DNA from: Patescibacteria group bacterium
GTDB taxonomy: Bacteria; Patescibacteriota; Patescibacteriia; UBA2591; JAQUPP01
Direction of reading: 5' to 3'
DNA length: 64,000 nt
NCBI GenBank assembly: GCA_041649955.1
Contig: JBAZMD010000001.1
Location: 68,079 to 132,078 of the forward strand
Shown here: piece after piece, positions 1,745 through 48,210 of the stretch
Position numbering within the stretch: position 1 is the first letter of the stretch
How the letters are laid out: every line of letters starts with the position of its first letter
Notes under the pieces: model-generated
Told to the model about the DNA's origin: nothing
The model's input: only the letters and a program-made list of their open reading frames with translations
Database searches by the model: none
Program-made: the position numbers and the translations under genes

Positions 1745-3073
1745 TTATTTCTTTTCAATTTTTGAAAAACCGCAATATTTTTGCAAGACTTCTGGAATCA
1801 AGATTGATCCGTCTTTTTGCTGATAATTTTCCAAAACAGCCAAAATCATTCTTCCCAAAGCCACGCCGGTATCATTAACAGTATAACAATATCCTTTTTC
1901 ATTATTATTTTTTTGATAGCGAATATTCAATCTTCTGGCTTGAAAATCAGTCGCGTTGGTGTCAGTCATTGTTTCCATAAATTCATTGGCCGCTATTCTC
2001 CAAGTTTCAACATCATATTGCTTGTGACTGGCGGCATAACCGGCATCACCGGTGCATTTTTGAATCACCCGATAAGGCATTTTAAGTTGTTGCAGCAACC
2101 ATTCATTAATAGACACCAATTCTTCAAAAATTTCATCTGCTTGCTCGGGAAGGCAAATAACGTCCATTTCCAATTTATCAAATTGATGGACTCTTTTTAT
2201 TCCGTGAACGTCTTTTCCCCAAGAACCGACCTCGCTTCTAAAACAAGAAGACAGAGAGCACATTTTAAAAGGCATATCTTTTTCTGAAAATCTTCTATCC
2301 ATTCCGTAGCCGAAAAGTGACGGCTCGGAAGAACCGACTAAAAATAATTTATTTTTATCTTCCACGTTTTCATCGCTGATTTTATAAACCTGATCATATC
2401 CTTCGGGAAAATGGCTGGTGCCAAAAAGCACTCTTTCTTTAACCATCAAAGGCACAACCATTGGCATGAACTTTCTTCTTAAAAGTTCTTTGAATAACAA
2501 ATCAATAATCGCAAATTGCAAAATAACCGCTTCTTTTTTTAAGTAACAAAATCTTGAACCCGAAGTCAGGGCGCTTTGTTCTACGTCAATAATATCCAAA
2601 TCTTTGCCCAATTCAATATGATCCTTGCCCGGAAAATCAGATTTCGGCATCTGAGCAACGACTTCAAATCCTTTTCCCAATAAAGATTTATCTAAATATC
2701 CTTTTTCCGGAGTCCAGACTCTGACATCAATATTATCGTCTTCGCTTTTGCCGATTGGCGTATCTTCGCTCATCAAATTGGGAACCCAAACAGCCAATTT
2801 GTCCATTTTAGTTTTAATTTCTTCAAGTGATTCTTCTGTGGTTTTTAATTTTTCTTTCAATTCTTTTCCTTTGGCTCTTATCGCTTCATCTTTACCGGCA
2901 GTTAAATTATTTCTCTCAGCGCGAATATTTTCCACTTCTGTTAATTTTTTTCTGTATTCTTCGTCCAATTCCAATAACGCATCCACATCAGCTTTTTGCA
3001 AATCCATTTTTCGATTGATAATATTTTGCTTGATTTTTTCTTTGTTTTCTCTGATGAATTTAATATCTAACAT
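1745..3073 (-). CDS. serS: Seryl-tRNA synthetase
   Basis: 442 aa. N-terminal coiled-coil arm followed by a class II core (RVHQFDKLE, TGVALGRMILAVLENYQ). Confidence 0.95.
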   Translation of the reverse strand: MLDIKFIRENKEKIKQNIINRKMDLQKADVDALLELDEEYRKKLTEVENIRAERNNLTAGKDEAIRAKGKELKEKLKTTEESLEEIKTKMDKLAVWVPNLMSEDTPIGKSEDDNIDVRVWTPEKGYLDKSLLGKGFEVVAQMPKSDFPGKDHIELGKDLDIIDVEQSALTSGSRFCYLKKEAVILQFAIIDLLFKELLRRKFMPMVVPLMVKERVLFGTSHFPEGYDQVYKISDENVEDKNKLFLVGSSEPSLFGYGMDRRFSEKDMPFKMCSLSSCFRSEVGSWGKDVHGIKRVHQFDKLEMDVICLPEQADEIFEELVSINEWLLQQLKMPYRVIQKCTGDAGYAASHKQYDVETWRIAANEFMETMTDTNATDFQARRLNIRYQKNNNEKGYCYTVNDTGVALGRMILAVLENYQQKDGSILIPEVLQKYCGFSKIEKK

Positions 3074-3100
3074 AATGATTAAAAAAAATTATACATTTAT

Positions 3101-10986: not shown

Positions 10987-13900
10987 TTATTGCAAAACAC
11001 TGCCGCCTATTTCACTAGTCCATGGATCATTTTTTGTTTTCTCAATAATCGGACCATAAACAGAATTAAAACATTTAAAAGCATCTGAATTATAGCCGAA
11101 TAATTTTTGCTGGCATTTAGTCGTCCAGCCACATAAATAGTGAGTTTCACAAGTATTTCTATCCATACCACCGCAATTTGCCTGCCATTTTGAAGAATCT
11201 GTTTCAAAATTCAGATATAAACGATAATCGTCTTCACTTATGGACACATACTGATAGACAGATGAGCCAACCGGACATTCATATTTACTTGTACTTTGAT
11301 TATAACAGGTTCCGCCGCATTGGCTAGTATCGCTGCAACCGGCGCAATAACCGCTTGTCGGGTTTGAAAATTGATTAGTCGGATCATTCGGCATACTGGA
11401 AATAAATTGCCCTTGAGGATTTTTCCAAGAAGGCCATTTGGAAACGGTCATTCCTTTTATAAAACTGCCTGATTCAAGTTTCGGATAATAACCATTAGTT
11501 GATTTATAATCTGTCAGTTTTTGGTTTATTGTTTTTAAATCATAAAGACGGAATAAATCTCGCTGAATTTTTTGCTGTTCATCAGTAGTTTTATTTGTGT
11601 TAAATTGCCAATTATTAACCAATTGATTAAAAATATCAATTGTCTCAGATTTAGCGCTATCAGAATACGAGATAAGATAAATTAAACCCTCAATTTTTCC
11701 GTCATCTTTAACATTTGTTGCCCCCACATAAACCGTTCTCCCCTCTTTTACCGCTTGATAACCATTAACAATAAACGATGTCGGTGAACCGGGGTTTGGC
11801 ACATTTTTCTTATACCATTCAAAAGGAGTAAGATAATCTGGATTTTTCAAAACCTTAAGACCGATCACGTCATTGTTAGCATTATTGGTAAAAAGAAATT
11901 CTTTAACTACATTTGATTTCGTAGTATCGGTTGCAATAAGAGATGGTAAGGATGGAAAATTTTGATATTCAGTCGGTTGCGCTCCTTTTTCCAATTGAAT
12001 ATTAGTCATATGGATTACATCTTCTTTTGTGGAAGCAGTCCATAATATCCCAACCTTAATTGCGGTATCATCAGGTCCGGTGGTAAAAGTATTGGAAATT
12101 TTAGCCAAAGCGCCAGTAGAAATCGCGTTTCCGGGCCAAACTAAATTATAATATGAAGAAGCAATCTTACTTTGAACATAAATGTATGCCAAAGACGTCC
12201 CTGTTCTATTTACTAACATGGATAGAGTATACTGCGTATTTGGAGAAACCTTAATCCAATTTGTTGATATTACTCCGGGAGTGCTTTTGGATTGCTTATT
12301 CGTGACTTTTAAAACATTATAATTAGATTGTTTAACAGTTGAAATGTCTACGCTTTGATTTTTACTCCAACCATTTGTGCCATCAAACATAGCACCGTTA
12401 AAAACTAAATTTTTCTCTAAATTTCCACGGCAATATTGCAATCTAAAATGAGTTTCTGAATCTGTAAATCCCCCTTGTATCCACGGAAATTCACAAAGAA
12501 AAACTTTGGCTTGTGCCATGGCTGAAAAGCTTTTACCAATATCTGATTTGGAAGTATCGGCTGTAATCTTAGCTGTAACTTTAATCTGCGAATCACCGTT
12601 TTGATTTTGGGCCGTGGCCGTTTGCGATGAATTAGCGCTGATTGGAACTAAAACCACGTTGGGTTTTGAAGAATCCCAAGACCAAGTCCAATTATAATCA
12701 GAAACGCCGTGAATCTCGGCTCCTTTATTATCAAGAGCTTTTGTTGAAAATTTTATTGTTGAATCTTTCTTATAAAACTCCACTGATGCTGGAGAAATAA
12801 TTTTTGGTTTTCCCGGATCTGTATTTACAGGATTAACTTTTTCATCCACTTCTTCGGCGGTTATTTCCACTTTGCTTAATTTGCAAATATCCGCACCAGT
12901 GGTAAATGTCCAAGAATTATTTTCCGCCATCTCAATGCCATATTTGCTTTTTACGATATTTTCTTTACCGGCAATTTCTTCTTTACCGGAAATTTCTACT
13001 TGATAAGTGCAAGCGCCGCTGGCATCTAATAAGCCTAAACCGGAATTTAAATAAACAATGGTTTGTTTTGTGGTATTATTATCAACCGCGGAAATATCCG
13101 CTTTTAAATCATAAATAACTGTTTTTCCCGCTTCAGCTTTTTTCAGAAAAATATTTTTTAAACTATTAAAAAATCTGACAAAAATATTATTTTTCTCCAA
13201 ACTGGCTGTAGCAGGACAATATTTATACAATTTAATTGTATCTGAATTAAGCGTGGATTTGTCCATTAATTGGTCAAAAGTGGCGTAAATTACGGTATTG
13301 CGGCAAACATTACCATTAGGATAACTATTCACTACTGTCGGCTGAGTAGCGACGACTAGATGGGAACTGTCGGAAATCGGTTGTTCACCTTTTGAAGTGG
13401 TAATTGTCGTGCTCACTGTAATATCTGTTTCACCTAAATTTTTACCTTTAACAGTCGCACTCTCGTTTGGCGTACCGACAAATTCAGCGATGTTCGGCGG
13501 ATCAGCGTCACCGTCGTCCCATGACCAAGAATATTTGCTTGATTCCAAATAATTACAATTTGAAGTATAAATTTGAGGAGTGTAAACTTTGGTTTCATTT
13601 TGTAAAATTTGGTTTGTACCCGCGGAATCAAGACAAATTTTATTCAAAGGACAATCATCATTATTCGCGATAAACATCCAAGTATAATCATCTCCTTGAA
13701 CGCCATTTTTGTCTCCATCCAGTTCCAATCCGAATTTATCTTTTATGCCGTTTGATCCGCTTTTTAAAATTATGCGGTAAATTTTATTTTTTTCCAAAGA
13801 AGCAGCAGGTTTGAAATAAAAGCCATTTTTTTCAATCGTAAAAGTGCCGAGAGCTATATTACTTGTCTCATTGTCCGGACATCCAGAATTATTAAAATCA

Positions 13901-16900
13901 CTAGTGCCGCATTTTTGAATTATTATATTTTTATTGGCAGCAGTATCAGTATTATTGGTGGTATCAATCACTACTTCCCGATTAAATCGAGCCCTGATTT
14001 GCGCTTGAGTGCAAGCGTCAGTAGATTGACTGGATGGCGAAGGTGATTGATCTCCCAATTTGCATTCACTGCAACCAGATTCTTCAGATACTTGCGGCGG
14101 TCCGCCCGGAGAAACTGTCAATAAAGCGCAAGTGCGCGGCTCTGTATAAGTACATACATTATCGCCCGTCGAAGCCATAATTAAAGATTGACCAAAATCT
14201 TTGGGTTTAGCAATTGTAGATAAACCGCTTGATGGTGAAATTGTGGCAATATTTGTTTTTGCGGAAGTCCAATTAAAACTATCCACGCAAATCTGGCGGC
14301 CATTTGAATCTAAAGCTGAAGCACCAAATGTCGGTGTTTGATTTAATCCATTAACTGTTAAATCAGTCGGAATAACTTTTATTGTTGTGATACGACATGT
14401 TCCATCTCCGGTAGTAAAATCCCAAGCAGTATCGTTCATAGAAACTCCCATTTTACTTATAGCTCCGCTTCCATATATTCCTCCCTTGACCCATATTTTA
14501 TAAGTAGAATTTGGATTTAGTTGACAGCCGGAAGGATAAAAATCAGTAGTTGTTTCTTTCTTAATATTATCATCAACGCTGGTGATTCTGCCCTTAACTT
14601 GATGAGGAGCTAAAATATCTTCTTCGGTTAAAGCTTTATTATAAATACGAACTTCGTCAATAACGCCTCTAAAATTAGAGTAATAGCATGATCCAAATTT
14701 TGGATCTGGACAGAGAGAATCTGCGTAAGATTGCCGGCCGATTACCAAATTGCCGGCATTGACTAAAGATTTTTCTCCAAATGTTTTTAGTTGAATACCG
14801 TCTAATTTTCCATTAACATAAATTTTAAGATTTTCTCCGTCATAAGTTGCTGTAATGCGATAAAAAACATCTTCTGATAACCATGTTGAACCGCGTACAT
14901 TAGTAAGATCAGGATGTATTCCAGTTCCCACTACGAAACCCGGCTGCCATTGACCGGTGTTTGGGCCTTTTCTATATAAATCCAATACATAGTTATTTCT
15001 TGCCGTCATACCCTCATCCCCTTTGGCTAAAATAACCAGTCTGCCCTTGTCAGGATCAGTAGAAGTGTCTTTTTTAATTTTTATAAAAACATCTAATGTT
15101 AATTTTTGCAAATCTAAAGAAGAACTATCAGGAATAGTTATATAATCACCATCGTCGCCTAGAGCACCATCAAATTCTAAAGCTTTTCCAAATTTTCCAT
15201 TAACCCAAGCTGCTCCGGAAATTGTTCCGTCATTTAACCCTTTCGCATCTTCAACGATTAATCCTGCTCCTTTGTTAAAATGCCAAAGCGCTACCATTCC
15301 TTCTTCAAAATTAGTTTCATAACCCGGATCAACATCAGAAGACAATAATTTGATATTATCATTTAAAGAATTATGATCCATTAAATCATCGAAGGTCATT
15401 GAAACTGACGCATTTTTACAAACATTAATTTCTCCATCAGCGGGTGATTTGCTTGCATTTATTATAATTGGTTGAGGATAACAGCATTTATTCGGATCTA
15501 AGATACCGCAACCGGCGCCGGTACCGCATTGAGCATCATTTTTGCAACCGCAACAGAGACCGCGAGGATTATCCTCTGGACCCTTACAATTACCTTGATT
15601 GGCTAAACAAGTTAAACCGACAGCGCAAGAATTCTGTTGTTTAGGATTGCAGCAACAACGACAAGTGTCAGCACCGCTTAAACATTTATAAGGCGCTGAA
15701 CAACTGCCTGAATTATTCGGACAAGATACATCTTGGCATTTATCTCCGGGTTTTGGCGCTCTATGTAAAACTTCAAAAGGCAAACTATTGCTTGTCCCGC
15801 TGGAATTTTTTACCACCACATTACCCTTTTGAGCGTCAGCCGGCACAAAGACTTCTATAATTTGCGTATCAGACCAATTTGCATCTAAAAAATCAGCAAC
15901 TACTTGATTATAAAAAATTATTTTGCTGCCGTCATTTTTTGTACCGAATCTTAAACCATTAAAACTGACTTTTGTTTCGCTTGGATCGCCTTTTGGATAA
16001 CCGCTGGAAGGATTAATTGACAAAAGACACGGACCGGATGATTCACTATTATCATTAACCAAAAATTTATCCCAACTCACAGTTTCTGATTTGCTGGCAT
16101 CTCCATCATAAGTAATCCCCACTTTAACGCCCAATGAATCCGAAATATCAGTTGCCGGATCGCCAAAAACCGCAGGAATAACCGTGGTAATAAAATCCGG
16201 ACCGGATGATTCTACGATTGCATTTATTGGCCCATCTTCTCCATTTGGTCGGGACTCAGCAGGCGGAATAACCGGATATTTATCATCAAATTGAAATTTA
16301 GTTATAGTCGCCGGACGATTAGTGGTGCCAGTAAAACAGCGGCCAAAAACAGTTACGCAACTTTTTCGTGAACCGGAATCGGGCGTTACTTTATAAATTA
16401 CCGGCGAACAAGCGCATTTGGTCAAATCAGTGGTTGTAAAATCCCAATCTTTGCCGAGTTTATTTTGATCAACATCCATTATTAAATCAGTAGTTGCGCT
16501 GATATAATAAGAAGTGCCGACAGTCAAATTATTATTTAATTTAATTTCAAAAACCTTAAATTGAGTGGAAATATTTTCAATATCAGCGTCAATAACTTTA
16601 ATTTTTCCAATCGTATTTTTGCCATCTTCGGTCGTGACGGATGCTTCAATTTCTTTCGGTTTAATAGAGCCTTGGAAAACAATATTTTTTCCGATTTTAC
16701 CCTGAATCGTTACCGTATTATCGTACATACTGGTGGCGAAGCTGACGCCAATCGGTTCGTCCGGACAAACATTTTTATCCTTTGGCCAATAATCGCTGAT
16801 CCCCGGAACAATATCATTTGTTTCAAATTTCCAAGATTGCGGCGCAGCCATTGGATTACCGCATAAATCTTTAACATTGGCCACGGTGATTTTATACCAA

Positions 16901-18165
16901 GTAAACGGATCAAGTAAATTAGGATTGCTTAAAGAAACAAAAAATCCTTGATATTTATCTTTAACAATTAATATTCCATTAATTGCCGTGCCGGATTCAG
17001 CATCTCGAGAAGCTAATTTTTCTATTGTAAAACTTGTGGAAATTGGATGTCCGTCAGCATCAGCCACTGTATCAAAATCTATACTTTCGTTAAAATTCAA
17101 ATCAATAATCGGCGCTCGAGAAACCCATTGATTTGGCTTTGCCGAATCAATAGTCGGATAAGTTTTATTCAAATAAGGCGCTTCTGTGTCTACGATATTA
17201 TTAGTTTCAAAATCCCAAATAACAGTATCAGCGTTTTTTGAGCAATGATATTTTGGATTAAATCCGTTACTGCAGCCATATAAAGGAAGACTGGGAATAT
17301 AAGTATCTTTAATTGATTTTGGGACAATAACATTATATTTAGTATCCGAGTCCCATATAGTTTTAGGAGTAAATAAAACCGAACTGCCTGAAATTTTCCA
17401 AGTTCCTTCAATAGCTTTTTTATCCGCATCAGTGGCTTTAACAACTTTCAAAGTTTCGTCGGTTATTACCGCGTTTACCTCATTAGAATTTAAATTATGA
17501 TTAAAAACTGGTTTTATCTTGCTGCAGCGATAAACTTTCGCATTTGGATTTTCAACTATATTCTCTGTACTGAAAGCAGCTTCGCCGCTCTTTAAAAGTA
17601 AAGACATTGAATCGGAAGAAAAATAACAAGTATCTTCTGCTGGAATAGTACATTCGCAATTCTCATCAAATTTCATGCCTATACCATTGCCGCAGCAAGA
17701 ATCCGGCTTGCAGCACTTGCTTCCTACGCAATAAGTTGAAGGTTCGGTCACCTCCGAAAGTTTACTCATAATAAAGCTGGCAATGGCGTAAGCTAAAACA
17801 ATAATTAAAATGCCGATAATGCCGGCAATCATCAATTTTTTGGCTCCGGCAATTTTAGTTTCATCTCCACCCGAAGTCATCCATCTAAAACCGCCCATAA
17901 TTATAATAACCGCCGCCGCCAATCCGAGCACGCCTAAAACAATTCTCATTATATTACCCATGGCAGAAGGGAGGTCAGTGTTTCCATAAGTCGCATGAGT
18001 GCGAAAATTTTCCAAACCGTTATTCATTTCTTGCGCATTGGTTAAAGCCGGATTTAAAACAAAAAATAAAAATCCGGATGCCATCAATAAACATAAAAAA
18101 CCTAAAAATATATTTTTTTTAAATTGTTTTTTTTCCGCCATCCGGCGAATTATTTCAATTTTCAT
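10987..18165 (-). CDS. Giant (2392 aa) surface protein with an N-terminal TrbC/VirB2-type pilin-like two-TM anchor, then Ig-like, IPT/TIG, Cys-rich, LamG and CBM-like domains
   Basis: One uninterrupted ORF. Residues 1-140 carry a TM, a loop and a second TM with GGFRWMTSGGDETKIAGAKKLMIAGIIGILIIVLAYAI. Later come SbsA/Big-type repeats (...WYKITVANVKDLCGNPM), IPT-like segments, Cys-rich blocks (CRCCCNPKQQNSCAVGLTC), LamG-like (LWHFNKGAG...ALEFDG...VRIYNKAL), Big_2-like repeats, a CBM4/9-like block and a Cys-rich C-terminus. Confidence 0.85.
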   Translation of the reverse strand: MKIEIIRRMAEKKQFKKNIFLGFLCLLMASGFLFFVLNPALTNAQEMNNGLENFRTHATYGNTDLPSAMGNIMRIVLGVLGLAAAVIIIMGGFRWMTSGGDETKIAGAKKLMIAGIIGILIIVLAYAIASFIMSKLSEVTEPSTYCVGSKCCKPDSCCGNGIGMKFDENCECTIPAEDTCYFSSDSMSLLLKSGEAAFSTENIVENPNAKVYRCSKIKPVFNHNLNSNEVNAVITDETLKVVKATDADKKAIEGTWKISGSSVLFTPKTIWDSDTKYNVIVPKSIKDTYIPSLPLYGCSNGFNPKYHCSKNADTVIWDFETNNIVDTEAPYLNKTYPTIDSAKPNQWVSRAPIIDLNFNESIDFDTVADADGHPISTSFTIEKLASRDAESGTAINGILIVKDKYQGFFVSLSNPNLLDPFTWYKITVANVKDLCGNPMAAPQSWKFETNDIVPGISDYWPKDKNVCPDEPIGVSFATSMYDNTVTIQGKIGKNIVFQGSIKPKEIEASVTTEDGKNTIGKIKVIDADIENISTQFKVFEIKLNNNLTVGTSYYISATTDLIMDVDQNKLGKDWDFTTTDLTKCACSPVIYKVTPDSGSRKSCVTVFGRCFTGTTNRPATITKFQFDDKYPVIPPAESRPNGEDGPINAIVESSGPDFITTVIPAVFGDPATDISDSLGVKVGITYDGDASKSETVSWDKFLVNDNSESSGPCLLSINPSSGYPKGDPSETKVSFNGLRFGTKNDGSKIIFYNQVVADFLDANWSDTQIIEVFVPADAQKGNVVVKNSSGTSNSLPFEVLHRAPKPGDKCQDVSCPNNSGSCSAPYKCLSGADTCRCCCNPKQQNSCAVGLTCLANQGNCKGPEDNPRGLCCGCKNDAQCGTGAGCGILDPNKCCYPQPIIINASKSPADGEINVCKNASVSMTFDDLMDHNSLNDNIKLLSSDVDPGYETNFEEGMVALWHFNKGAGLIVEDAKGLNDGTISGAAWVNGKFGKALEFDGALGDDGDYITIPDSSSLDLQKLTLDVFIKIKKDTSTDPDKGRLVILAKGDEGMTARNNYVLDLYRKGPNTGQWQPGFVVGTGIHPDLTNVRGSTWLSEDVFYRITATYDGENLKIYVNGKLDGIQLKTFGEKSLVNAGNLVIGRQSYADSLCPDPKFGSCYYSNFRGVIDEVRIYNKALTEEDILAPHQVKGRITSVDDNIKKETTTDFYPSGCQLNPNSTYKIWVKGGIYGSGAISKMGVSMNDTAWDFTTGDGTCRITTIKVIPTDLTVNGLNQTPTFGASALDSNGRQICVDSFNWTSAKTNIATISPSSGLSTIAKPKDFGQSLIMASTGDNVCTYTEPRTCALLTVSPGGPPQVSEESGCSECKLGDQSPSPSSQSTDACTQAQIRARFNREVVIDTTNNTDTAANKNIIIQKCGTSDFNNSGCPDNETSNIALGTFTIEKNGFYFKPAASLEKNKIYRIILKSGSNGIKDKFGLELDGDKNGVQGDDYTWMFIANNDDCPLNKICLDSAGTNQILQNETKVYTPQIYTSNCNYLESSKYSWSWDDGDADPPNIAEFVGTPNESATVKGKNLGETDITVSTTITTSKGEQPISDSSHLVVATQPTVVNSYPNGNVCRNTVIYATFDQLMDKSTLNSDTIKLYKYCPATASLEKNNIFVRFFNSLKNIFLKKAEAGKTVIYDLKADISAVDNNTTKQTIVYLNSGLGLLDASGACTYQVEISGKEEIAGKENIVKSKYGIEMAENNSWTFTTGADICKLSKVEITAEEVDEKVNPVNTDPGKPKIISPASVEFYKKDSTIKFSTKALDNKGAEIHGVSDYNWTWSWDSSKPNVVLVPISANSSQTATAQNQNGDSQIKVTAKITADTSKSDIGKSFSAMAQAKVFLCEFPWIQGGFTDSETHFRLQYCRGNLEKNLVFNGAMFDGTNGWSKNQSVDISTVKQSNYNVLKVTNKQSKSTPGVISTNWIKVSPNTQYTLSMLVNRTGTSLAYIYVQSKIASSYYNLVWPGNAISTGALAKISNTFTTGPDDTAIKVGILWTASTKEDVIHMTNIQLEKGAQPTEYQNFPSLPSLIATDTTKSNVVKEFLFTNNANNDVIGLKVLKNPDYLTPFEWYKKNVPNPGSPTSFIVNGYQAVKEGRTVYVGATNVKDDGKIEGLIYLISYSDSAKSETIDIFNQLVNNWQFNTNKTTDEQQKIQRDLFRLYDLKTINQKLTDYKSTNGYYPKLESGSFIKGMTVSKWPSWKNPQGQFISSMPNDPTNQFSNPTSGYCAGCSDTSQCGGTCYNQSTSKYECPVGSSVYQYVSISEDDYRLYLNFETDSSKWQANCGGMDRNTCETHYLCGWTTKCQQKLFGYNSDAFKCFNSVYGPIIEKTKNDPWTSEIGGSVLQ

Positions 18166-18187: not shown

Positions 18188-18643
18188 TTAGATATTATTT
18201 AATTGTTCTTTGACTATTTGGCTGACTTGATTGCCGTCCGCTTTGCCCTTGGTTTGTTTCGCCACCAAGCCCATTACTTTGCCGAAATCCGAAGGACCGT
18301 TGGCATTGATTTCTTTAATAACATTTAAAACTATTTCTTTCACTTGATCGCCCGATAATTGTTCGGGCATATATTTAAAAAGTATTTCCAATTCTTTTTT
18401 TTCTTTGGCGGCTAATTCCGGCCGATTCCCCTTTTCATATAATTCTATCGCCTCTTTGCGTTTTTTTATTTCTCCGCCGACAATATCAACAGCCAGTTCA
18501 TCGGTTAATTCTTGTTTCTTGGGTCTTAATTCAATAGCTTTATACGCCAAGGCGGATTTTAACATACGCAAAACAGCCTTCGTGTCTTCCTCTCCTTCAC
18601 GCAAGGCTTGTTTAAAATCTTTTTCAATACGTTCGAGCAACAT
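18188..18643 (-). CDS. yqeY: GatB/YqeY domain protein
   Basis: 151 aa with a YqeY-like pattern (LRMLKSAL, GEIKKRKEAIELYEKGNRPELAAKEKKELEILFKYMPEQLS, GKADGNQVSQIVKEQL). Confidence 0.85.
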   Translation of the reverse strand: MLLERIEKDFKQALREGEEDTKAVLRMLKSALAYKAIELRPKKQELTDELAVDIVGGEIKKRKEAIELYEKGNRPELAAKEKKELEILFKYMPEQLSGDQVKEIVLNVIKEINANGPSDFGKVMGLVAKQTKGKADGNQVSQIVKEQLNNI

Positions 18644-18815
18644 ATTTACCTCATTGGGGCGAGGATTATGTCGCTAAGAAAAGTGTCTTCCGCCAAAGGG
18701 CGGATAAACTCCGGGCGAGTAGTTCGCCAGCTGGGGCGGAGAGCCCGAGAGCCAAGCGACAATTTTCCCGCTGGGAAAATTGATCGTGTCTTTTCGTGCG
18801 ACTAATCCGAACCTT
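18644..18815. ncRNA. GC-rich multi-hairpin element filling the rpsU-yqeY spacer (candidate structured RNA, class unknown)
   Basis: Closing stem ggattatgtcgc (18663-18674) with gcgactaatcc (18798-18808). Inner hairpins are ccgcc-aaag-ggcgg, gcga-gtagt-tcgc, gggc-ggaga-gccc, and a perfect 10-bp caattttccc-gct-gggaaaattg. Confidence 0.45.
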
Positions 18816-19034
18816 TTACTTAATTTTACCAAGTTTTCTTAAATATTCCATTTTCTCGCGAGACGATTTTCTGCACAAAGCGCTTGCTCTGCGAAGAAGC
18901 TTGCTTTGCGGTTTAACATAAAATTGGCCTTTTTTGGCAAGGTCAAGCACGCCGCTTCTTTTAATGCGTTCGCTGAATCTTCTTAAAAAAATATTTAAGG
19001 ATTCGTTTGGTTTTCTTTTAAGTTCAATACTCAT
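18816..19034 (-). CDS. rpsU: 30S ribosomal protein S21
   Basis: 72 aa and basic, with an S21-like sequence (NESLNIFLRRFSERIKRSGVL...RRASALCRK). Confidence 0.9.
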   Translation of the reverse strand: MSIELKRKPNESLNIFLRRFSERIKRSGVLDLAKKGQFYVKPQSKLLRRASALCRKSSREKMEYLRKLGKIK

Positions 19035-19041: not shown

Positions 19042-19069
19042 ATTATAATATATAATAATTAAAAAGCAA
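19042..19069 (-). promoter_or_regulatory. Promoter for rpsU (near-leaderless)
   Basis: ggggcTTGCTTtttaattattatatatTATAATataaagtATG. Only 7 nt separate the -10 box from the ATG. Confidence 0.55.
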
Positions 19070-19222
19070 GCCCCACCACATGGAAATTATTGTTTTTCTG
19101 TAAAATTACGATTTAATAAGTATAAATTAAAAAAAATATTTTAGTTAGATATTTGAAATTATTAAGCATATAAAAAAACAAGAGAACAGTAATTTTAATA
19201 ATTTCCTTGTGGTGGGGCAAGC
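19066..19222. repeat. MITE-like hairpin element with a C-rich and a G-rich arm, full-length copy
   Basis: Arms gcaagccccaccacatggaaattatt and aataatttccttgtggtggggcaagc. The AT-rich interior is homologous, in inverted orientation, to 54813-54962. Confidence 0.75.
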
Positions 19223-19256
19223 CTATTCTAACACATATTTTTATAGACGGGAAGAA

Positions 19257-30881: not shown

Positions 30882-33800
30882 TTATTTCGCGGCTAAGAAT
30901 TTCGGCGTGACTAAATTCTCGGCAAAATCTGAAATTGTTCCGCCGTCAGAATAAGTTTCAGCCTTAGAAATAGTCATTACCGGCACTTTGCTGTAACCAT
31001 TGTTGGTTAAAGCTTTGGCGGATAATTTATATTTCTTGCCGTTCTGAATCAGATAAATCTGAGAAGTTCCCGTGTATTTAACCAATGTTCCATTAGGATG
31101 TTTAGTCGTGGAATCAATCGTATCGCCTAAAGGATAATTGAATTTGGATAATAAATCATCAGGCACCCAAGTCACCAATTTCCATTTCGGATCATTGAAA
31201 AGTTTCTGATAAATCGCTGAAGATTTAACCGGTCTCAATTTGCCGTCAGAAACCATGAATACTGCCGAAGCGCTTAAACCGTGAAGCGATGTAGTCTTGC
31301 CTCTGAATAATGAACCGTCGCGGAATGTCATTGCTACGCCTTCAGAATATTTCGCAAATTCTTCAGAAGTAACCTTCTTGACTGTTGAGAAATTGGATGG
31401 ATAACCCCAAGAGAGATAAACATTAAGATGCGGGAAAACGTGCGCCTTGCCGTCCAAAATCATATAAACCGCGCCTGGTTGAGCAGTACAAGTCGGACAA
31501 ATAACCAAATCTCTATTTTTGAGATTATAAGTTATAACTTCTGCTGTTTCTTCTGATTCAGAAATAATTATTGCTGAAATTATTGAAGAGAGATTAAAAG
31601 TCTTATCTCTGAAACGGATATAAACCACTTTTTCTCCCTTACCAACTGGTAGTAACCAAGAACGAGTAGCTTGATACGGTTCCCAATTAATACCGACAAA
31701 ATCAATCGTATTACTAATCATCATTTCCGCGGCATCAGTAGCAGTAATGTTTAAAGTAACATTTCTGGAAGTAGTTTTCGCGGCACCACTATTTATCTTT
31801 AAGGATAAATCTTTTGGACCAAGATTACCTGCATTGCCACCACCTCCTGAACTGCCACTCATTGGGGTCGAATCTCCGCCAGCAGTAACAAACTTTCCTC
31901 CGGTAATACCGCCAGGTGTAAAATGGTTTGTGGTAACAATTATAACATTATTAGTTGCATCGCGAACCACTGATTTATAATTTTCCCAAGTGTTTGTGGT
32001 GTCATCAAAATATTTTGGCGTAATATCAGCTTCAGTATATCCATAATCTGTAATTAAATCCGGATCATAAGGGAATGTAATCTTTACGTCATTATCAAAT
32101 TGAGTGATTTCTTGACCAGTAGAGTCCTTAGCCGTGAAATCATAGTTAACGCCAAGCGGTTTATCTTTAGCATCCGGTTTCACTGATACCGTAGTTTGAT
32201 TTTCATCACCAACAGTCGGCGTAATAGTTACGGTAACTGTGCCACTGCTGGCTAAAGCTCCGGCTGGAATTTCAAGCGTCAGACCATTTGTAAGTTCAAT
32301 AGTTTTACTGTCTGAAGCGTTGAAAGTCGTAGTTTTAGCTTCAGGAACGGCAAGACCTGTGGTAACAAGAGTTAAATTCTTAGTTTGAGCGCCTGCTACG
32401 GTTATAACTTCAGTCGCAGCGCTTTCATAAAGGACTCCATCAATTTTGGCCGTGGCCTTAACATACCATGTTTCACCGGACTTAACTTTTAAAGTATAAG
32501 TTCCGTCAGAAGCCATTGTACCGGTTCCCTTATCCTCAGACCAAGCTTGTATCATTGCTTGTTTTCTAACGCTGTCTAAAGTAACCTCACCGGTGATAGT
32601 GGCATCTGATAAACTGAATTGAAGATCCTTACCTGTTACATTGGAATCGCCAACCGTCACACTGAGTAATGGCGGGTTAATCAAATCTCTCGCATCCCAA
32701 GGAGGAATACCGGCACCAATTTTGAAAGTACCACTGGTAACATTTAAAGTATAAGTGCCGTCATTTCCGGTAAAAGTACCAACACCCAAACCGCCCGGAC
32801 CCTTAAAATCATTTTTGGTCGTTTCATCACCAAAGTCAGCATAGACCCAAACTCCACTCATACCAACATCATCCGGATCCGTGATTGTACCGCTGATTGT
32901 TTTATCAAGTTTTTTAAGTTGGAAATTACGAGTAGTTGTACTATCGGCAATAACGGTTGATTTTACGTCTTCGGCTACTATTTTGTATTTATCATTATCA
33001 TCTCCAAAATTCATCATCGGATCAATAAAAGCGTCAACGTACCAACTGCCTGCTGAAACTTTTAATGAATATTTATCATTAACACTGCTTGGAGCAAATT
33101 CTGTTTGCGACCAGCCGCCATTTTCTTTATCACCATTGATAAAAGCGCGAACTCCTGTCACAACCGTATCTGTTCCTGCAGTATAAGAACTATCGCTATT
33201 AGTATCAAGATAAAATTTACCTTCAATCGTAGCATTATTCGGTGCCACCACTAAATCAATTTCTTTACATCCGGTTGTTTCGTCAGTACAAGTATCGCTT
33301 TCACCAACAGTAACAGTTTTAGTTACGGTTAAAGTATATTTAGAACCCGGAGGCGTATTTAAACCTAATTCATAACTGCCGAGCGGAACTTTAATTTCAG
33401 TATAACCATTAGCTAATCCTCCGCCGGCAAAACCACCTTTATCCATACCTGCTCCCATTGCTCCGCCGCCACCGCTGCCGCCACCTACAGCTGTTCCACC
33501 ACTACCTGCATCGCCGCTTCCACCTGCCATCATTTTCGGATCACCGAAATCAATAAAATCATTTACTGTCGGATCCGTATCTTTAACCCAAACTCCACCC
33601 CAAATATCGGAAACACGATTACCGTCAGCATCCACTACATTTACTTTAAGCAGACCATCGGCTACCTTTAATAAAAAGTCATTATTATCAGAAGTTTGAT
33701 TGGCGGTTATTGTTACTTGTTGCGGACCACCTTGATAAATATATTGAGTTGACATTGGCATAATCATTACGCCCCAATTTCCTTCACTGACAGTTAAATC

Positions 33801-36800
33801 AAATCTGCCGGTATTAGAATCTGTTTGTGTATTAGCCCAGCCCGGTCCATTCATTTGCCAAGCATTAACCATCACACTGCCAATTGCATTACCGGCCGAA
33901 TCTGTAACCGTTCCTTTAATATGAGCATTCTTTGCTGTTAAAATAAGTGTGCCTGCGTCAGTTGTTTGTTCAGAAATAGCTTTGATTTTAACCGGAGTGG
34001 AACCGCCATAACTCTGACCTTGTTCGCCCCAGTTTGGATTAGCCACCAAATCATAAGTACCAGCTGGAACTTTAAAAGTAAAACGTCCATCAGAATCAGT
34101 ATTGGCACCATTGCCACCACCCATCATACCGCCGCTATTGGCCATTACCCAAGAATTGGCAATTGCCGTAGCACCGGTTGGATCTTTAACTAAACCTGTA
34201 ATAATAGCATTGGCCACTTGAACTTCAAAATCCAAACCAGCATCAAGTATAGTAGCGCCTCCCGGACAATTTCCCACTGTACCGCGGCATTCCGTGCTGC
34301 CATCTTCGGTAAAAGTAGTTCTCTTTGGAGATTCATTATAAACCCAATCAGGTTGACCCATGCTCCAATCAGGATTTACACTTAACCACCAGCCGCCGCC
34401 GGCAAGTTTTAAAGTATATTCACCACTTGAATTTGTTAATGTTTCAAAATGTCCACCTCCCATATCGCGATTAGCTTGAACGCGGGCATTAGCGACTAAT
34501 GCACCGCTGCCCTTTTTAGTCACTGTACCGGTTAAAGTTTTTGTTGGGACAGTTAAGGTAATTAAATTATTTGCCTGAGCCACATTGGCCACTTTAACTG
34601 TGCCTACGTCATCAGCAACATCAACGGTTAATCCGCTTGGTTGAATCCAAGCTTTTTCACCGCCCCAAGGCAAATTGATTTCCATGGATAATCCGGTGGC
34701 ATTGGTTAAACCGCCGATTCGGAAATAACCTTGATCATCAGTTGAAGCACCACCCTGATTTTGCCACATTTGATCATGAATCATAATCCAAGACCATTGG
34801 ACAGGTTGATCATCCGCAGTTCCGGCAACTTCATCCGCACCCGGATTCATTACTCTTCCGGTAACTTGCGGCGTACCAAGTATGAGTTTACCGCCGGTTC
34901 CATAAGTCACACCTAAATCTAAATTAGAAGTTCCGGCAGCTACGGCAGAGGAAATTGTAATATTAGAATATTTTTTTGTTGAATAATTACGATAAACAGC
35001 TTGTTCTTCAGGCGTCCCCCAACGTGGAGCTTCAATTTCTAAAGCATAAGTTCCTGCTGTCACACCACCAAAAGAGAATTGACCGTTCTGATTAGTGTTT
35101 GTGCCATACCAACCACCCGTAGTACCGCCTTGCATTGGTCCTTCAATATGGAAATTAATCCAAGCATTAGCCACAGTTGTAGTAGTATTTGGAATAACAA
35201 CCGTACCGCTAATATTCGGAGTGCTTAAAATTATATTTTTGGTTCTGCTTGATTGAGAACTGGTAACTGTAACATTCTGAACAAGTTTTCTCCCGCAAGT
35301 AATATTTCCGCAACCATTCCAAGGATTTGCTTCCACTTCATAAGTACCAATAGTCACACCGCCAATGGCATAATTTCCATTAGCATCTGTTTGTGACCAT
35401 TGAGAACCGGACATTGAACCTTGTGATCGCATATTAATACCAACATTAGTTGCACCGATATCAGGATAACCCACCGGATCATCGCATTCAGCTTGAGTCA
35501 CAGTTGAATTGTCGTCATGTTTCGGTTTGCAAACACGACCGGTTAAACCATTAACTGTCGGGTCGCTTAACAAAACAAGTAAACTATTATTAGCAATTGT
35601 CAAAGCAGTACCCGGATCTGATACCTCGGTAATAGTAGTTCCGGCAACACTTACTACCATGCCTTGCGGCGCAGCATAAAGACTGCCGTATTGAGTATTG
35701 ACATTAAAATTCCAGCTGCCCGTAGGAACATTTAAACTAAATGTTCCATCACTTTGAGCACTGGCGCCATAACAACTACCGGCTGATTGATAAGGACAAA
35801 AATCAATCCAAATTCCGCTTTGTCCGGTTGTACCGGTTGGATCTTTAACTACACCAGTAACATTGGGTGCTGATAAAGTAAATGCGTCATCATCAACGCT
35901 ATCAAGAGTGTCAGCTTGATCTTTTAAATCATTAGAAGTAGTTGAAGTAATGGAAACTGAAAAATTACCGCTGGCACAAGCACTGCCGCTCGCCGGTTGA
36001 ATTCGAAGATTATAAGTACCAAGTGCCACGCCACCAAGAGAAAAATTACCACTATCATCAGTATTTACACCATACCAAGAACCATCTTTATCCATATTTA
36101 TCCAAGCGACGGTTGTTACACCACCGCATTTTACTTTTCCAAAAACATTTGGCAAAGCAAAAGTTTTATTTCCCAAATCAGTAATTTGTCCATCCGTAAC
36201 ATCAATGGCAAATTCAGCAGTTCTTGTTCTTGGATAACTTCTAAAGTCGCCGCTGTATGGCGGCTCAATTTCTAAAATATAATGAGTACTGTCTGTCACT
36301 CCGCCAAAATAAACTATGCCATCAGCATCGGTCTGTGCCCATTGATTGTAAGACCAATCCATAGTATGAAGACCAATATTGGCATAAGGCACTGGCAAAC
36401 CAGGCTGAGGATTACTTGCCGTAGCAGTATCACCTAAAGTACCAGGAGCCTTAATCGTTACTTTAACATTTTGAGCGGATAAATTGATATTAATGCCGGT
36501 TGCAGTTTGACCTGAAGTTAAACATTGAGAAGTTCTAACGCTTTTATATTGTAAAACTCTGTCTTGATAATCTTTGGGTCTGGCTTCAATTTCATAACAT
36601 TGGCTGCTGGTATCATTTGGAACATAAAGTTTCCATGTTCCGTTTGGACCGGTTGTTGTTCTTTGCTCATAGTCCCAAGTATAAGGACGAGCAACCACTT
36701 CTACGCCTTCCAATAATGTTGCGCCACTGGGAGATTTAACCGTACCGGAAAGAGTGGCTGTTCTAAAAGCTTGGGTGGCTAGTGTTGCCACTGAACCCAC

Positions 36801-37808
36801 CGTAGCTGTTTGACTGCTTAACTTGGAGGGCGCCACATAAGTCGCGCCGGCCGGGGTGCTGAATTGTATATTATAACTTCCGGTCGCACTTAATAATAAA
36901 GCATATTTGCCATTGGAATGAGTTTCCCCAAGCACGACATTTCCCATTTGTCCGGGCGTAAAAGATTCAACCTGGACTCTATCTATGTCACCGGCCGTAT
37001 CTGAGGTAAGACTACCTATAAATATGCCTTGCGTGCTATTCCAAATTATAAATGGTCGTGAATCTGAAACACGACGCGTATTCAAATCACTAATTATTAT
37101 ATCTACGCGGCCGTTTAATCCGGTTGGAATTGTAGCCGTAAGTTCAGTAGCTCCGGCAGTTGCAGGCGTGGATGTTACACTTCCTCCGTTAAAATTCCAA
37201 TATATTTCTGTTGCGTCAGTTGAGGTGGAATAATTAGAACCGGTAATCGTTACTGTATCGCCGACATTGCCGCACGGATAACCATTGCAAAGATCAGACT
37301 CAGTAGTATTGGTTATATAATTGATAATCGGATCAATAGAAGCGCTAACAGTATTGTTGGCAGTAAAATCTTCTATAGTTTGAGTTCCTGCTAAATTTTT
37401 AATATCTCCGGCTGTCATCTGCCAAGTTTGTCCTTCGCTTAATTTTAAATTTTTTAAACCGTAAATTCTTAAACGATAATCATTCTCGCCCGCCTGAATA
37501 CTTTGAGTTGACATATCATAAGGACTGAATCGACTTAATGTTCTGTCTGTTAATCCCGCTCCTGTTTCAAAAATAAAATTACGCAAATCTGTCGCGTAAT
37601 TGGTTGCACTTCCTGCTTCGGTTGTTGAAGATGGGGTTGTTTCTGCGGAAAATTGTCCGTTGAATGTAATTTCCGCTGAAGTTGTCGAGACCGTAATATC
37701 GGTCACGGCTATTGGTGCTAATGCACTCACTGATGTGGACAGCCCCATTGACCACAACATGGTCGTGGCTGTCACAAAAATTGAAAAAAACTTTTTTGTG
37801 TTGTTCAT
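30882..37808 (-). CDS. Giant (2308 aa) secreted surface protein made of a dozen or more prealbumin/CarboxypepD_reg-like beta-sandwich repeats, Gly-rich linkers and three C-terminal ~55-65-aa modules
   Basis: Signal peptide MNNTKKFFSIFVTATTMLWSMGLSTSVSALA. Recurrent units such as ITGLVKDPTGATAIANSWVMA...TDSDGRFTFKVPAGTYDLVANP. Gly tracts (GGSGGGGAMGAG, SGSSGGGGNAG). C-terminus HPNGTLVKYTGTSQIYLIQNGKKYKLS... Confidence 0.85.
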   Translation of the reverse strand: MNNTKKFFSIFVTATTMLWSMGLSTSVSALAPIAVTDITVSTTSAEITFNGQFSAETTPSSTTEAGSATNYATDLRNFIFETGAGLTDRTLSRFSPYDMSTQSIQAGENDYRLRIYGLKNLKLSEGQTWQMTAGDIKNLAGTQTIEDFTANNTVSASIDPIINYITNTTESDLCNGYPCGNVGDTVTITGSNYSTSTDATEIYWNFNGGSVTSTPATAGATELTATIPTGLNGRVDIIISDLNTRRVSDSRPFIIWNSTQGIFIGSLTSDTAGDIDRVQVESFTPGQMGNVVLGETHSNGKYALLLSATGSYNIQFSTPAGATYVAPSKLSSQTATVGSVATLATQAFRTATLSGTVKSPSGATLLEGVEVVARPYTWDYEQRTTTGPNGTWKLYVPNDTSSQCYEIEARPKDYQDRVLQYKSVRTSQCLTSGQTATGININLSAQNVKVTIKAPGTLGDTATASNPQPGLPVPYANIGLHTMDWSYNQWAQTDADGIVYFGGVTDSTHYILEIEPPYSGDFRSYPRTRTAEFAIDVTDGQITDLGNKTFALPNVFGKVKCGGVTTVAWINMDKDGSWYGVNTDDSGNFSLGGVALGTYNLRIQPASGSACASGNFSVSITSTTSNDLKDQADTLDSVDDDAFTLSAPNVTGVVKDPTGTTGQSGIWIDFCPYQSAGSCYGASAQSDGTFSLNVPTGSWNFNVNTQYGSLYAAPQGMVVSVAGTTITEVSDPGTALTIANNSLLVLLSDPTVNGLTGRVCKPKHDDNSTVTQAECDDPVGYPDIGATNVGINMRSQGSMSGSQWSQTDANGNYAIGGVTIGTYEVEANPWNGCGNITCGRKLVQNVTVTSSQSSRTKNIILSTPNISGTVVIPNTTTTVANAWINFHIEGPMQGGTTGGWYGTNTNQNGQFSFGGVTAGTYALEIEAPRWGTPEEQAVYRNYSTKKYSNITISSAVAAGTSNLDLGVTYGTGGKLILGTPQVTGRVMNPGADEVAGTADDQPVQWSWIMIHDQMWQNQGGASTDDQGYFRIGGLTNATGLSMEINLPWGGEKAWIQPSGLTVDVADDVGTVKVANVAQANNLITLTVPTKTLTGTVTKKGSGALVANARVQANRDMGGGHFETLTNSSGEYTLKLAGGGWWLSVNPDWSMGQPDWVYNESPKRTTFTEDGSTECRGTVGNCPGGATILDAGLDFEVQVANAIITGLVKDPTGATAIANSWVMANSGGMMGGGNGANTDSDGRFTFKVPAGTYDLVANPNWGEQGQSYGGSTPVKIKAISEQTTDAGTLILTAKNAHIKGTVTDSAGNAIGSVMVNAWQMNGPGWANTQTDSNTGRFDLTVSEGNWGVMIMPMSTQYIYQGGPQQVTITANQTSDNNDFLLKVADGLLKVNVVDADGNRVSDIWGGVWVKDTDPTVNDFIDFGDPKMMAGGSGDAGSGGTAVGGGSGGGGAMGAGMDKGGFAGGGLANGYTEIKVPLGSYELGLNTPPGSKYTLTVTKTVTVGESDTCTDETTGCKEIDLVVAPNNATIEGKFYLDTNSDSSYTAGTDTVVTGVRAFINGDKENGGWSQTEFAPSSVNDKYSLKVSAGSWYVDAFIDPMMNFGDDNDKYKIVAEDVKSTVIADSTTTRNFQLKKLDKTISGTITDPDDVGMSGVWVYADFGDETTKNDFKGPGGLGVGTFTGNDGTYTLNVTSGTFKIGAGIPPWDARDLINPPLLSVTVGDSNVTGKDLQFSLSDATITGEVTLDSVRKQAMIQAWSEDKGTGTMASDGTYTLKVKSGETWYVKATAKIDGVLYESAATEVITVAGAQTKNLTLVTTGLAVPEAKTTTFNASDSKTIELTNGLTLEIPAGALASSGTVTVTITPTVGDENQTTVSVKPDAKDKPLGVNYDFTAKDSTGQEITQFDNDVKITFPYDPDLITDYGYTEADITPKYFDDTTNTWENYKSVVRDATNNVIIVTTNHFTPGGITGGKFVTAGGDSTPMSGSSGGGGNAGNLGPKDLSLKINSGAAKTTSRNVTLNITATDAAEMMISNTIDFVGINWEPYQATRSWLLPVGKGEKVVYIRFRDKTFNLSSIISAIIISESEETAEVITYNLKNRDLVICPTCTAQPGAVYMILDGKAHVFPHLNVYLSWGYPSNFSTVKKVTSEEFAKYSEGVAMTFRDGSLFRGKTTSLHGLSASAVFMVSDGKLRPVKSSAIYQKLFNDPKWKLVTWVPDDLLSKFNYPLGDTIDSTTKHPNGTLVKYTGTSQIYLIQNGKKYKLSAKALTNNGYSKVPVMTISKAETYSDGGTISDFAENLVTPKFLAAK

Positions 37809-38785: not shown

Positions 38786-39640
38786 TTATTTTTTTCTTAA
38801 TTGATAAATGGTGTAGAATTTGGAAAAAGCGGGATGTTTAACCGGCTCTTTTATTTTTTTAACAATCGTAAAATATTTTTTAACCAGCCGGTCAAACATT
38901 TTTTCCGGCAGCATAGTAACGCGATGCGGCTGATTGTAAAAATCAAAAGTCATTAAATCATATTCTTTTTGAGTGATTTCTTTGTTTTTTAATTTCTCGC
39001 CTAAAAACAGATTAAATTTGTTCATCTCGGTAGTGTATTCTTTCTTGTTGTAAAATCGCGGATCTGAATAAGCGCAGCTTTCCCAAATATAAATTTTATT
39101 ATTCAATGATTTGAAATAATTCGGCTGGCGCTTGCATTTTTCAATCACGCTTTCCGCGGTCTGCAATATCGGACTCGCGTTGGTAACGGTAATAATCAAT
39201 TCTCCTCCCGGTTTCAGAATAGTTTTCATTGCCTTAAAAAATTGTTCGTACAACTCAAGATTGACCAAATTATTGGTTACGGCATGGCCGATAATGCAAT
39301 CAAATGTTTTGGGAAGAAAATATTTTGTCGCTTCTGTCCAAAGACCGTTGGTTATTTTTTCTTTGCTTTCTATTTTTTTTAAACCGTTCATTGTTTCAAC
39401 CATATTTTGGCTGAATTCCAAAAGCGTGACCTTAAATTTCATTTTTGCCAGACAATCCCGAATGGCCGGCGTACAGCCTAAAACCAAGGCCTTATTGCCT
39501 GATTTCTTTTTAATGATTTTTAAAATTTTAGCGCAAGCGGCAATATGCTTTTTTGAAGGCACAAAAGGCGGCGGAATTTTGGCATAGGTTTGAGTATACC
39601 CTTCTTGCCACACTTTTTTATTTATTGCTTCTTTTTCCAT
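38786..39640 (-). CDS. SAM-dependent methyltransferase, paralog family LG.TPE.RD (copy 2 of 3)
   Basis: Motifs ALVLGCTPAIRD, LLEFS, ILKPGGELIITV and tail KKYFTIVKKI. The start is set at ATG 39640, 5 nt after the upstream stop. The ORF-track start at 39673 would overlap the upstream gene by 28 nt. Confidence 0.7.
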   Translation of the reverse strand: MEKEAINKKVWQEGYTQTYAKIPPPFVPSKKHIAACAKILKIIKKKSGNKALVLGCTPAIRDCLAKMKFKVTLLEFSQNMVETMNGLKKIESKEKITNGLWTEATKYFLPKTFDCIIGHAVTNNLVNLELYEQFFKAMKTILKPGGELIITVTNASPILQTAESVIEKCKRQPNYFKSLNNKIYIWESCAYSDPRFYNKKEYTTEMNKFNLFLGEKLKNKEITQKEYDLMTFDFYNQPHRVTMLPEKMFDRLVKKYFTIVKKIKEPVKHPAFSKFYTIYQLRKK

Positions 39641-39645
39641 GTTAG

Positions 39646-40479: not shown

Positions 40480-40494
40480 AATTGTCGATTTAGA

Positions 40495-40658
40495 TCCGCC
40501 AACTGGCGGAGAAATAAATTTTCGCTACAATTTATGAGCACCCTGCTTCAAACCTCTAAACAAAATCAGTTCAAAGATAGCGTAAGCCGAAGGCGTTTCC
40601 ATGAATTAAATTAATTATTTTTTCACGAACCTTCTTCGGGTTTGGGGCGTGGGTCGCC
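40495..40658. repeat. Intergenic repeat family B, copy 3
   Basis: ttcgctacaatttatgagcaccctgcttcaaacct ... gtaagccgaaggcgtttcc ... ttcgggtttggggcgtgggtcgcc. Confidence 0.7.
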
Positions 40659-40669
40659 ATAAAATAATT

Positions 40670-42962: not shown

Positions 42963-42980
42963 AATTTAATTTTAAATTAT

Positions 42981-43925: not shown

Positions 43926-43945
43926 ATATTTTTATTTTAATTTAT

Positions 43946-48186: not shown

Positions 48187-48210
48187 CTAAACGAATTTAC
48201 GTTCTGTGGA

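Follow-up and report, generated by a model that had tools for sequence, protein, structure and literature searches.

A folded intercistronic element of a very small family between rpsU and yqeY in a Patescibacteria operon leading into a giant surface protein gene

We identified a folded element of about 160 nt between the genes rpsU and yqeY in the metagenome-assembled genome of a Patescibacteria (CPR) group bacterium, within a 64,000-nt stretch of DNA that is referred to here as the window (contig JBAZMD010000001.1 of assembly GCA_041649955.1, positions 68,079 to 132,078, with position 1 of the window as its first letter). Intercistronic folded elements are a known general type of feature, but the family of this one is new and very small, and it belongs to no known RNA class. 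An initial annotation had marked the 172-nt spacer that holds the element (18644-18815) as G+C-rich in an AT-rich genome, and its composition agrees with this, with 53-58% G+C against 35% window-wide (0.547 for 18625-18774 and 0.352 for the entire window). The spacer is the sole noncoding G+C island of the window, the other islands lying inside open reading frames (ORFs) or in the Gly-rich tail of an RRM gene. The genes on either side had been correctly named as rpsU and yqeY but lie on the minus strand, and the element, described earlier as standing at the entry to an operon for a giant adhesin, forms part of the transcription unit running into the giant gene.

The spacer folded far better than expected from its composition on both strands, with −68.5 kcal/mol (z = −5.26) on the operon-sense (minus) strand and −72.4 kcal/mol (z = −4.59) on the plus strand, values equaled by 0 of 200 dinucleotide shuffles in either case. 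All 4 hairpins named in the initial annotation were present in the minimum-free-energy fold, as was its closing stem, in which 18663-18674 pairs with 18798-18808 through 11 bp and one bulged A (P1), and which we found to be extended by P2 (6 bp) and P0 (3 bp). In the predicted structure, a rod of about 20 bp (P0, 3; P1, 11; P2, 6) closes a multi-hairpin head made of the P3 hairpin, a C/U-rich block, and variable hairpins. The parts of the element, with the corresponding positions of the homologous locus L217 where these are informative, are as follows.

18650-18813, minus strand: whole folded element, about 160 nt, from the predicted fold; the covariance-model match spans 18650-18812, and the homologue lies at L217 2957-3122.
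18811-18813, minus strand: 5' arm of P0, GGU, pairing with GCC at 18658-18660 (3 bp) in the fold; GGC/GCC in L217, so that U.G becomes C-G.
18798-18808, minus strand: 5' arm of P1, GGAUUAGUCGC, from the fold; in the invariant core UUAGUCGCACGAAAA (18791-18805), 15/15 identical in L217.
18796-18797, minus strand: 5' side, AC, of an asymmetric internal loop, with UUA at 18675-18677 on the opposite side; identical in both family members.
18790-18795, minus strand: 5' arm of P2, GAAAAG, pairing with CUUUUC at 18678-18683 (6 bp); the final pair is G-C here and C-G in L217.
18760-18782, minus strand: P3, a perfect 10-bp hairpin, CAAUUUUCCC-AGC-GGGAAAAUUG; the loop CCAGCG is conserved, and 6 compensatory double changes separate the stem from that of L217.
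18725-18752, minus strand: conserved C/U-rich middle block, GCUCUCGGGCUCUCCGCCCCAGCUGGCG; overlaps predicted P4 and P5 and is similar to GCUCUCUCGCUCUCCGCC-AACUGGCG of L217.
18685-18728, minus strand: variable G+C hairpins P5 (GGCGA-ACUAC-UCGCC) and P6 (GUUU-A-UCCGCC-CUUU-GGCGGA-AGAC), from the fold; these align poorly with L217.
18663-18683, minus strand: 3' arms of P2 and P1 together with the bulged A and the UUA side of the internal loop; the invariant core UUUUCUUAGCGACAUAA (18666-18682) falls here and is 17/17 identical in L217.
18657-18664, minus strand: conserved 3' tail, CCUCGCCC, 8/8 identical in L217; contains the 3' arm of P0.

A homologue of the element was identified at a single further locus, represented by L217 and L218, whose YqeY protein is 61% identical to that of the window. 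A covariance model built on the window element alone (R1) matched it over the full model length with 47.9 bits (E about 1e-12). At this locus, rpsU and yqeY are separated by only 4 nt, and the element is located instead between yqeY and a giant gene of 2316 aa, on the sense strand and 45 nt before the giant start. The distance to the next gene is 19 nt in the window, where that gene is yqeY, and a GAGG is found nearby only in the window copy.

The 2 copies are unevenly conserved. The rod arms are identical at 24/30 and 26/29 positions, with the 3 cores at 15/15, 17/17, and 8/8, and the bulged A and the AC/UUA loop are the same in both, whereas P3 retains 10/23 positions and the surrounding DNA is 63% (rpsU), 65% (yqeY), and 52% (giant gene) identical. 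Because the rod arms are far more identical than the rpsU and yqeY DNA and P3, the rod is under sequence constraint and is not merely the product of a recent transfer. P3 keeps the loop CCAGCG, but both bases have changed in 6 of its 10 pairs, which nevertheless still pair. For P1-P3 together, 94.4% of cells pair and there are 7 doubly changed pairs, 6 in P3 and 1 in P2; slid controls gave 0-2 double changes, and 2 of 500 shuffles reached the observed value. The outer end of P1 is weaker in L217, and the helices are otherwise kept. That the rod is invariant while the neighboring hairpin is fully rewritten speaks against a very recent transfer of the element in its entirety and points to a sequence-specific constraint on the rod. 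In the middle block, both copies share GCUCUC..GCUCUCCGCC..CUGGCG, and of the variable hairpins L217 retains only UCCGCC-N4-GGCGGA. The 2 copies constitute a small, previously undescribed family, identified so far in 2 lineages of these tiny, uncultured Patescibacteria. The comparison with relatives that had been proposed for the spacer thus gave a divided answer, in that the nearest relatives lack the element, whereas a distant one has a homologue with compensatory changes.

That the structure is a chance fold or an assembly artifact, for which only its uniqueness in the window speaks, is effectively refuted by the absence of any shuffle that folds as well, by the homologue with its compensatory changes, and by a second assembly record. 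This record, a separate European Nucleotide Archive contig of the same locus (L215), carries an element identical at every base, which excludes an assembly quirk.

Some additional sequence features were observed in and beside the 2 copies. In the L217 copy, the 12-nt sequence CCCGCTCGGCCT occurs twice in direct orientation within the variable interior, at 3014-3025 and 3069-3080, and a hairpin competes with P3 for GAGGUCGGAG. In the window, the P3 arm GGGAAAATTG (in 18760-18782) resembles the final rpsU codons GGTAAAATTAAG (18822-18831), with 9 of 10 bases complementary or identical.

We compared the locus with 4 sister lineages whose YqeY proteins are 95-97% identical to that of the window and whose flanking DNA is 85-95% identical. 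The gene order (histidine kinase, response regulator, Na/Pi-PhoU transporter, rpsU, yqeY, giant gene) is common to the window and all 4 sisters, and the genes next to the element in the window are listed below.

18816-19034, minus strand: rpsU (ribosomal protein bS21, Pfam PF01165), the gene upstream of the element; nucleotide identity to relatives is 94-95% up to the stop codon.
18188-18643, minus strand: yqeY (GatB/YqeY domain protein, Pfam PF09424), the gene downstream of the element; its product is 100% identical to an NCBI protein entry for a Patescibacteria group bacterium.
10987-18165, minus strand: giant surface protein gene, an ORF of 2392 aa that begins 22 nt past yqeY.
18649-18652 and 18641-18643, minus strand: Shine-Dalgarno GAGG and ATG of yqeY, read from the sequence; part of the replaced spacer and not homologous to the spacer of the relatives.

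The 2392-aa giant product matched the Pfam families T4SS_pilin (weak), Big_5 (weak), Laminin_G_3, and CBM_4_9. In the sisters, the rpsU-yqeY spacer is 53-58 nt long, AT-rich, and devoid of the element. Homology between the window and the sisters ends at the rpsU stop codon (18814/18815) and restarts one base before the yqeY ATG (18644), and from these exact breaks it follows that the window spacer is a replacement acquired in the window lineage and not ancestral. The short spacer is conserved among the sisters and contains a promoter-like TTGTCA-16-TAAATT (2952-2979 in L010 and 2949-2976 in L001), which suggests that the sister strains may start transcription of yqeY and the giant gene there; nothing of this promoter-like spacer is left in the window. 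As judged from these alignments, the element was recently added to the operon and does not belong to a conserved core of rpsU or yqeY regulation. High G+C content and a good fold need not mark a spacer as a conserved regulator of the flanking genes; here, it was the comparison with the nearest strains that exposed the acquisition. The spacer between the Na/Pi transporter and rpsU (19069-19234 in the window) is likewise nonhomologous to that of the sisters, with 222 nt against 81 in L010 and 193 in L001; in the window it is AT-rich and has no notable fold.

Our preferred reading, which we hold tentatively, is that the operon transcript carries the element as a cis-acting RNA module gained by horizontal transfer, with the rod serving as a recognition platform for a protein or RNase. 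Both copies lie inside an rpsU-yqeY-giant-gene unit, in the same orientation and without a consensus promoter or terminator of their own, so that transcription in the operon message is the simplest reading. Replacement of the spacer left no consensus promoter-like site between rpsU and yqeY in the window, which suggests that the downstream genes are reached by read-through. The element would have arrived in the window lineage by horizontal replacement of the short spacer that bears the promoter-like site in the sisters, and it would act in cis as RNA within the rpsU-yqeY-giant-gene transcript. Its near-invariant rod could be the place where a protein acting in trans recognizes or cleaves the transcript, candidates being RNase III or another double-strand-specific RNase, or else an RNA-binding protein dedicated to the rod. 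By processing, stabilization, or insulation, the fate of the abundant rpsU message might then be uncoupled from that of the yqeY and giant-gene message. We infer sense transcription, recognition by a protein, and an effect on processing or stability from this arrangement, and among the options named in the initial annotation a processing site is viable and is the one we prefer.

The rod of P0, P1, and P2, at about 20 bp, has the length of RNase III substrates (about 2 turns, 20 bp or more), a class that includes intercistronic stems such as those in the Escherichia coli rplL-rpoB spacer and at the early-mRNA sites of phage T7. Like these stems, the element contains a rod of about 20 bp interrupted by internal loops, lacks its own promoter and terminator, and separates, within a single transcript, a gene for a ribosomal protein from large genes downstream. 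The sequence specificity of RNase III sites is loose, whereas the rod described here is invariant and carries a large branched head, cleavage at this site being a prediction; the element is also dispensable and patchily distributed, unlike those stems. A second parallel is offered by the processive antitermination RNAs EAR and put (about 120-160 nt), which are likewise structured and located inside operons ahead of very long genes. The element differs from them in having no Rfam match at any threshold and no pseudoknot or other defining feature that we could identify, and sister strains have the same giant gene without it.

Several observations weigh against a cis-acting RNA module. The element is dispensable, since the same operon exists without it in 4 sister lineages. 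The sense strand is C-rich, with 50 C and 40 G in the window copy and 64 and 43 in L217, which is unusual for functional RNAs. Only 2 members of the family are known, so that the covariation amounts to one pairwise comparison, and a consensus structure for the P4-P6 interior is not resolvable from 2 sequences on either strand. In both copies, the antisense strand folds at least as well as the sense strand; for L217 the values are −78.1 kcal/mol antisense and −65.3 kcal/mol sense, and only the antisense minimum-energy fold gives the rod together with P3. The supported helices contain almost no G.U pairs, and the pairing is therefore equally compatible with folded single-stranded DNA. Because both strands fold and G.U pairs are few, the evidence is compatible with either strand and with either molecule, RNA or folded DNA.

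The same strand evidence bears on the proposal of an independent small RNA, considered here as a separately transcribed gene on the G-rich antisense strand (the plus strand of the window), whose product would overlap the 5' region of the message of the downstream gene. We consider this improbable. It would account for the excess of G over C on the plus strand in both copies, for the more stable antisense folds, including the rod and P3 of L217, and for 2 sense A.C mismatches in L217 that the antisense strand turns into G.U pairs; U-rich sequence, moreover, follows the rod on that strand in the window. This U-rich tail, however, is simply the reverse reading of the native, Lys-rich end of rpsU or yqeY, and it does not directly follow the stem in L217. 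Scans with sigma70-type promoter and canonical terminator consensus sequences in and beside both copies found no such site on either strand, which leaves an independent small RNA of either orientation without the signals expected of it, the antisense strand included. One G.U pair of the window copy, in P0, favors the sense strand, and the z-scores do not consistently separate the strands.

We searched for further copies by several routes. In the window, blastn with short words gave no second copy, and the covariance models, run also with filters off, gave a single copy in the 64-kb window plus about 10 kb of flank. Neither blastn against all fetched loci nor R1 on 697 kb of YqeY loci gave a copy, and a model built on both copies (R2) identified no member beyond the window and L217/L218 in 793 kb of loci and the remaining loci. 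Nor was there a match in phage and plasmid collections searched in distant mode. In viral contigs, exact patterns (23-mer, 20-mer, two-arm, and 17-mer) returned 0, 0, 0, and 9 matches, the 9 being chance matches, and a 20-mer search of metagenomes returned 0. A degenerate inverted-repeat pattern in metagenomes returned at least 119 single unpaired chance matches, none of which scored with the model and 2 of which, when read, were coding; a copy of the L217 type would have escaped this pattern, which was overly stringent at GGATTA and GAAAAG. The conserved blocks of the 2 copies can be written as the pattern TTAGTCGCACGAAAA-N(95-125)-TTTTCTTAGCGACATAA. Protein queries translated from the element in six frames, which would reveal other copies miscalled as ORFs, gave no matches, and YqeY relatives in viral contigs amounted to 4 distant loci, none with the element. 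Because the homologue searches were centered near yqeY genes, the apparent tie of the element to the rpsU/yqeY operon is partly a product of where we searched (ascertainment bias).

These searches also bear on a mobile origin, which we regard as possible though doubtful. Here, the element would be a small nonautonomous mobile DNA element (miniature inverted-repeat transposable element, REP, or palindrome-associated), its arms being terminal inverted repeats or a single-stranded DNA site for a transposase or HUH-type enzyme encoded elsewhere, and any effect on the operon would be a by-product. Its presence or absence among strains with flanks 85-95% identical, its patchy occurrence across lineages, and its occupation of a different spacer in L217 fit such an origin. 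So do the conserved ends around a variable interior, the terminal inverted repeats (P1 and P2 arms of 19-21 nt, imperfect), helices made up almost wholly of Watson-Crick pairs that form on both strands, and a G+C content foreign to the host. The same may hold for the sequence AAAATT(A/G)AGTAAA, which lies just upstream of both copies (12/13 identical; window 18817-18829 at the end of rpsU, L217 2937-2949 at the end of yqeY); 25 of 2000 shuffles matched the similarity in a post hoc test, and it could be an insertion-site preference or chance. Against a mobile element stand the single copy in the window and its flank with filters off, the lack of copies outside L217/L218 in about 0.8 Mb of related loci, and the lack of real copies in exact-seed scans of viral and metagenome collections. 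No target-site duplication or direct repeat was found at the ends, and the old spacer was replaced, not interrupted. The difference between the 2 arms is conserved in both copies, the P3 pairing survives 6 double changes, and those window ORFs that were scanned for domains encode no transposase, integrase, relaxase, or reverse transcriptase.

Two groups of DNA elements are useful for comparison. Correia/NEMIS, ERIC, and REP/BIME are cotranscribed repeats that alter the processing and stability of mRNA. The element shares with them a size in the range of 100-170 bp, long terminal inverted repeats able to fold in the mRNA, an intergenic position within an operon, and strain-variable presence, but those repeats reach tens to hundreds of copies and show target duplications, whereas the element has one copy per locus examined, no duplication, and a homologous interior in which a hairpin is kept by compensatory change. 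With integron attC sites and with the hairpin substrates of HUH enzymes, it has in common a 2-box stem, an unpaired central spacer, an extra-helical base, a terminal structure that varies and may be branched, a single-stranded tail that is conserved, and a position directly after an ORF. Unlike attC, it has no RYYYAAC and GTTRRRY core sites, forms no array, and has no integrase or HUH gene in the window. An integron attC was rejected on these grounds, the 2 core sites being missing from the base of the stem in either orientation. If it were a mobile DNA hairpin, the element would be an ordinary feature in an unusual host.

The initial annotation had found no motif that placed the spacer in RNase P, tmRNA, 6S RNA, or a riboswitch class, and our screens agree with this. 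The sole match of the whole window to Rfam 15 at the gathering score was a tRNA at 62900-62970, with nothing at the spacer. At E<=10, the spacer region gave only a chance match to Pab19 (15.6 bits), and the L217 copy gave nothing relevant. ARAGORN identified no tRNA or tmRNA at the element. The 6S and SRP RNAs, a tRNA-like Y RNA, and small ribozymes were rejected because a defining motif or partner gene was missing or because there was no Rfam signal, and a retron noncoding RNA was rejected because no reverse transcriptase is encoded nearby.

A ligand-responsive riboswitch or attenuator for yqeY and the giant adhesin operon, as suggested earlier, is very unlikely. The element does form a closed multi-helix fold upstream of a start codon, and the CCUC in the conserved 3' tail CCUCGCCC could pair with the Shine-Dalgarno GAGG of yqeY. 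It is, however, missing from the 4 sister lineages with the same operon and from most other relatives, contains no terminator, and has no expression platform common to the 2 copies; the L217 copy stands 45 nt before a different gene with no comparable Shine-Dalgarno arrangement. Conservation is concentrated in the helices and not in the junctions, and Rfam gave no match.

The other suggested regulator, a binding site through which bS21 (or YqeY) would control its own synthesis, is also hardly probable. Both copies share one transcript with rpsU and yqeY, and a sequence-invariant rod suggests recognition by a protein. The element nevertheless lies 3' of rpsU, and in L217 yqeY intervenes. Adjacency of rpsU and yqeY is frequent in Patescibacteria, Firmicutes, and Chloroflexota, mostly with short, AT-rich spacers, and the spacers of further relatives (about 60-65% identity) measure 4-45 nt; about 50 other rpsU-yqeY spacers that we examined do not contain the element, nor do the YqeY-centered loci of 80 species representatives or the sister strains. 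In the one studied case, bS21 autoregulation acts via the 5' untranslated region of rpsU2 (PMC13374519). The window itself carries no rRNA of this organism, in which the site that such an element might mimic would lie.

A rod this invariant, next to a hairpin that has been entirely rewritten, speaks for a specific partner acting in trans. The genomes of Patescibacteria are tiny, few regulatory RNAs are known from them, and their giant surface proteins are thought to serve in attachment to hosts; if the element is a dedicated, transferable RNA module at the entry to a giant gene, it offers a rare clue to the control of such proteins. A more ambitious version, which we think unlikely, is that it represents a new class of horizontally exchanged module of about 160 nt, specific to Patescibacteria, whose ultraconserved rod would be read by a trans-acting factor and which would be plugged into rpsU/yqeY operons to control the giant surface proteins with which these episymbionts attach to hosts.

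Structured sequences unrelated to the element were observed at the corresponding position in other Patescibacteria. L004 (2099-2197), as well as L005 and L006 (YqeY 62% identical), carries a different, hairpin-rich spacer of 99 nt with 55% G+C and z about −2.8. It was rejected as a relative, since only the short GGGCGGAG..CCCGAG is shared, on the opposite strand, and there was no model or blastn match. In L014 (2566-2707), L065 (3871-3997), and L048 (3912-3985), the same spacer holds long AT-rich imperfect palindromes of CGAAU/AUUCG units or a 12-bp perfect hairpin. The rpsU-yqeY spacer thus seems prone to gaining hairpin sequences. In L007 (2595-2690), a G+C-rich structured stretch with no Rfam match lies between an SHMT gene and rpsU. 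A terminator-like hairpin, GGGTCCCGGCTTCGGCTGGGACC, and a T run close this stretch, which might represent a small RNA or a leader.

Elsewhere in the window, the remaining G+C islands were rejected as further elements because they are coding, and the second island (48126-48561) comprises an RRM gene and a terminator hairpin. This gene (48211-48561, minus strand) encodes an RRM-domain RNA-binding protein of 116 aa with a Gly/Arg-rich tail, and the strong terminator-like hairpin is located 3' of it at 48134-48185. A second giant ORF of 2308 aa (30882-37808, minus strand) contains internal G+C-rich islands at 33417-33546 and 36730-36859. At 41514-46868 and 38786-41506, we also identified 3 tandem paralogues with the PEP-utilizers mobile domain, a PPDK_N protein, and, adjoining these, a run of 3 class-I methyltransferase paralogues.

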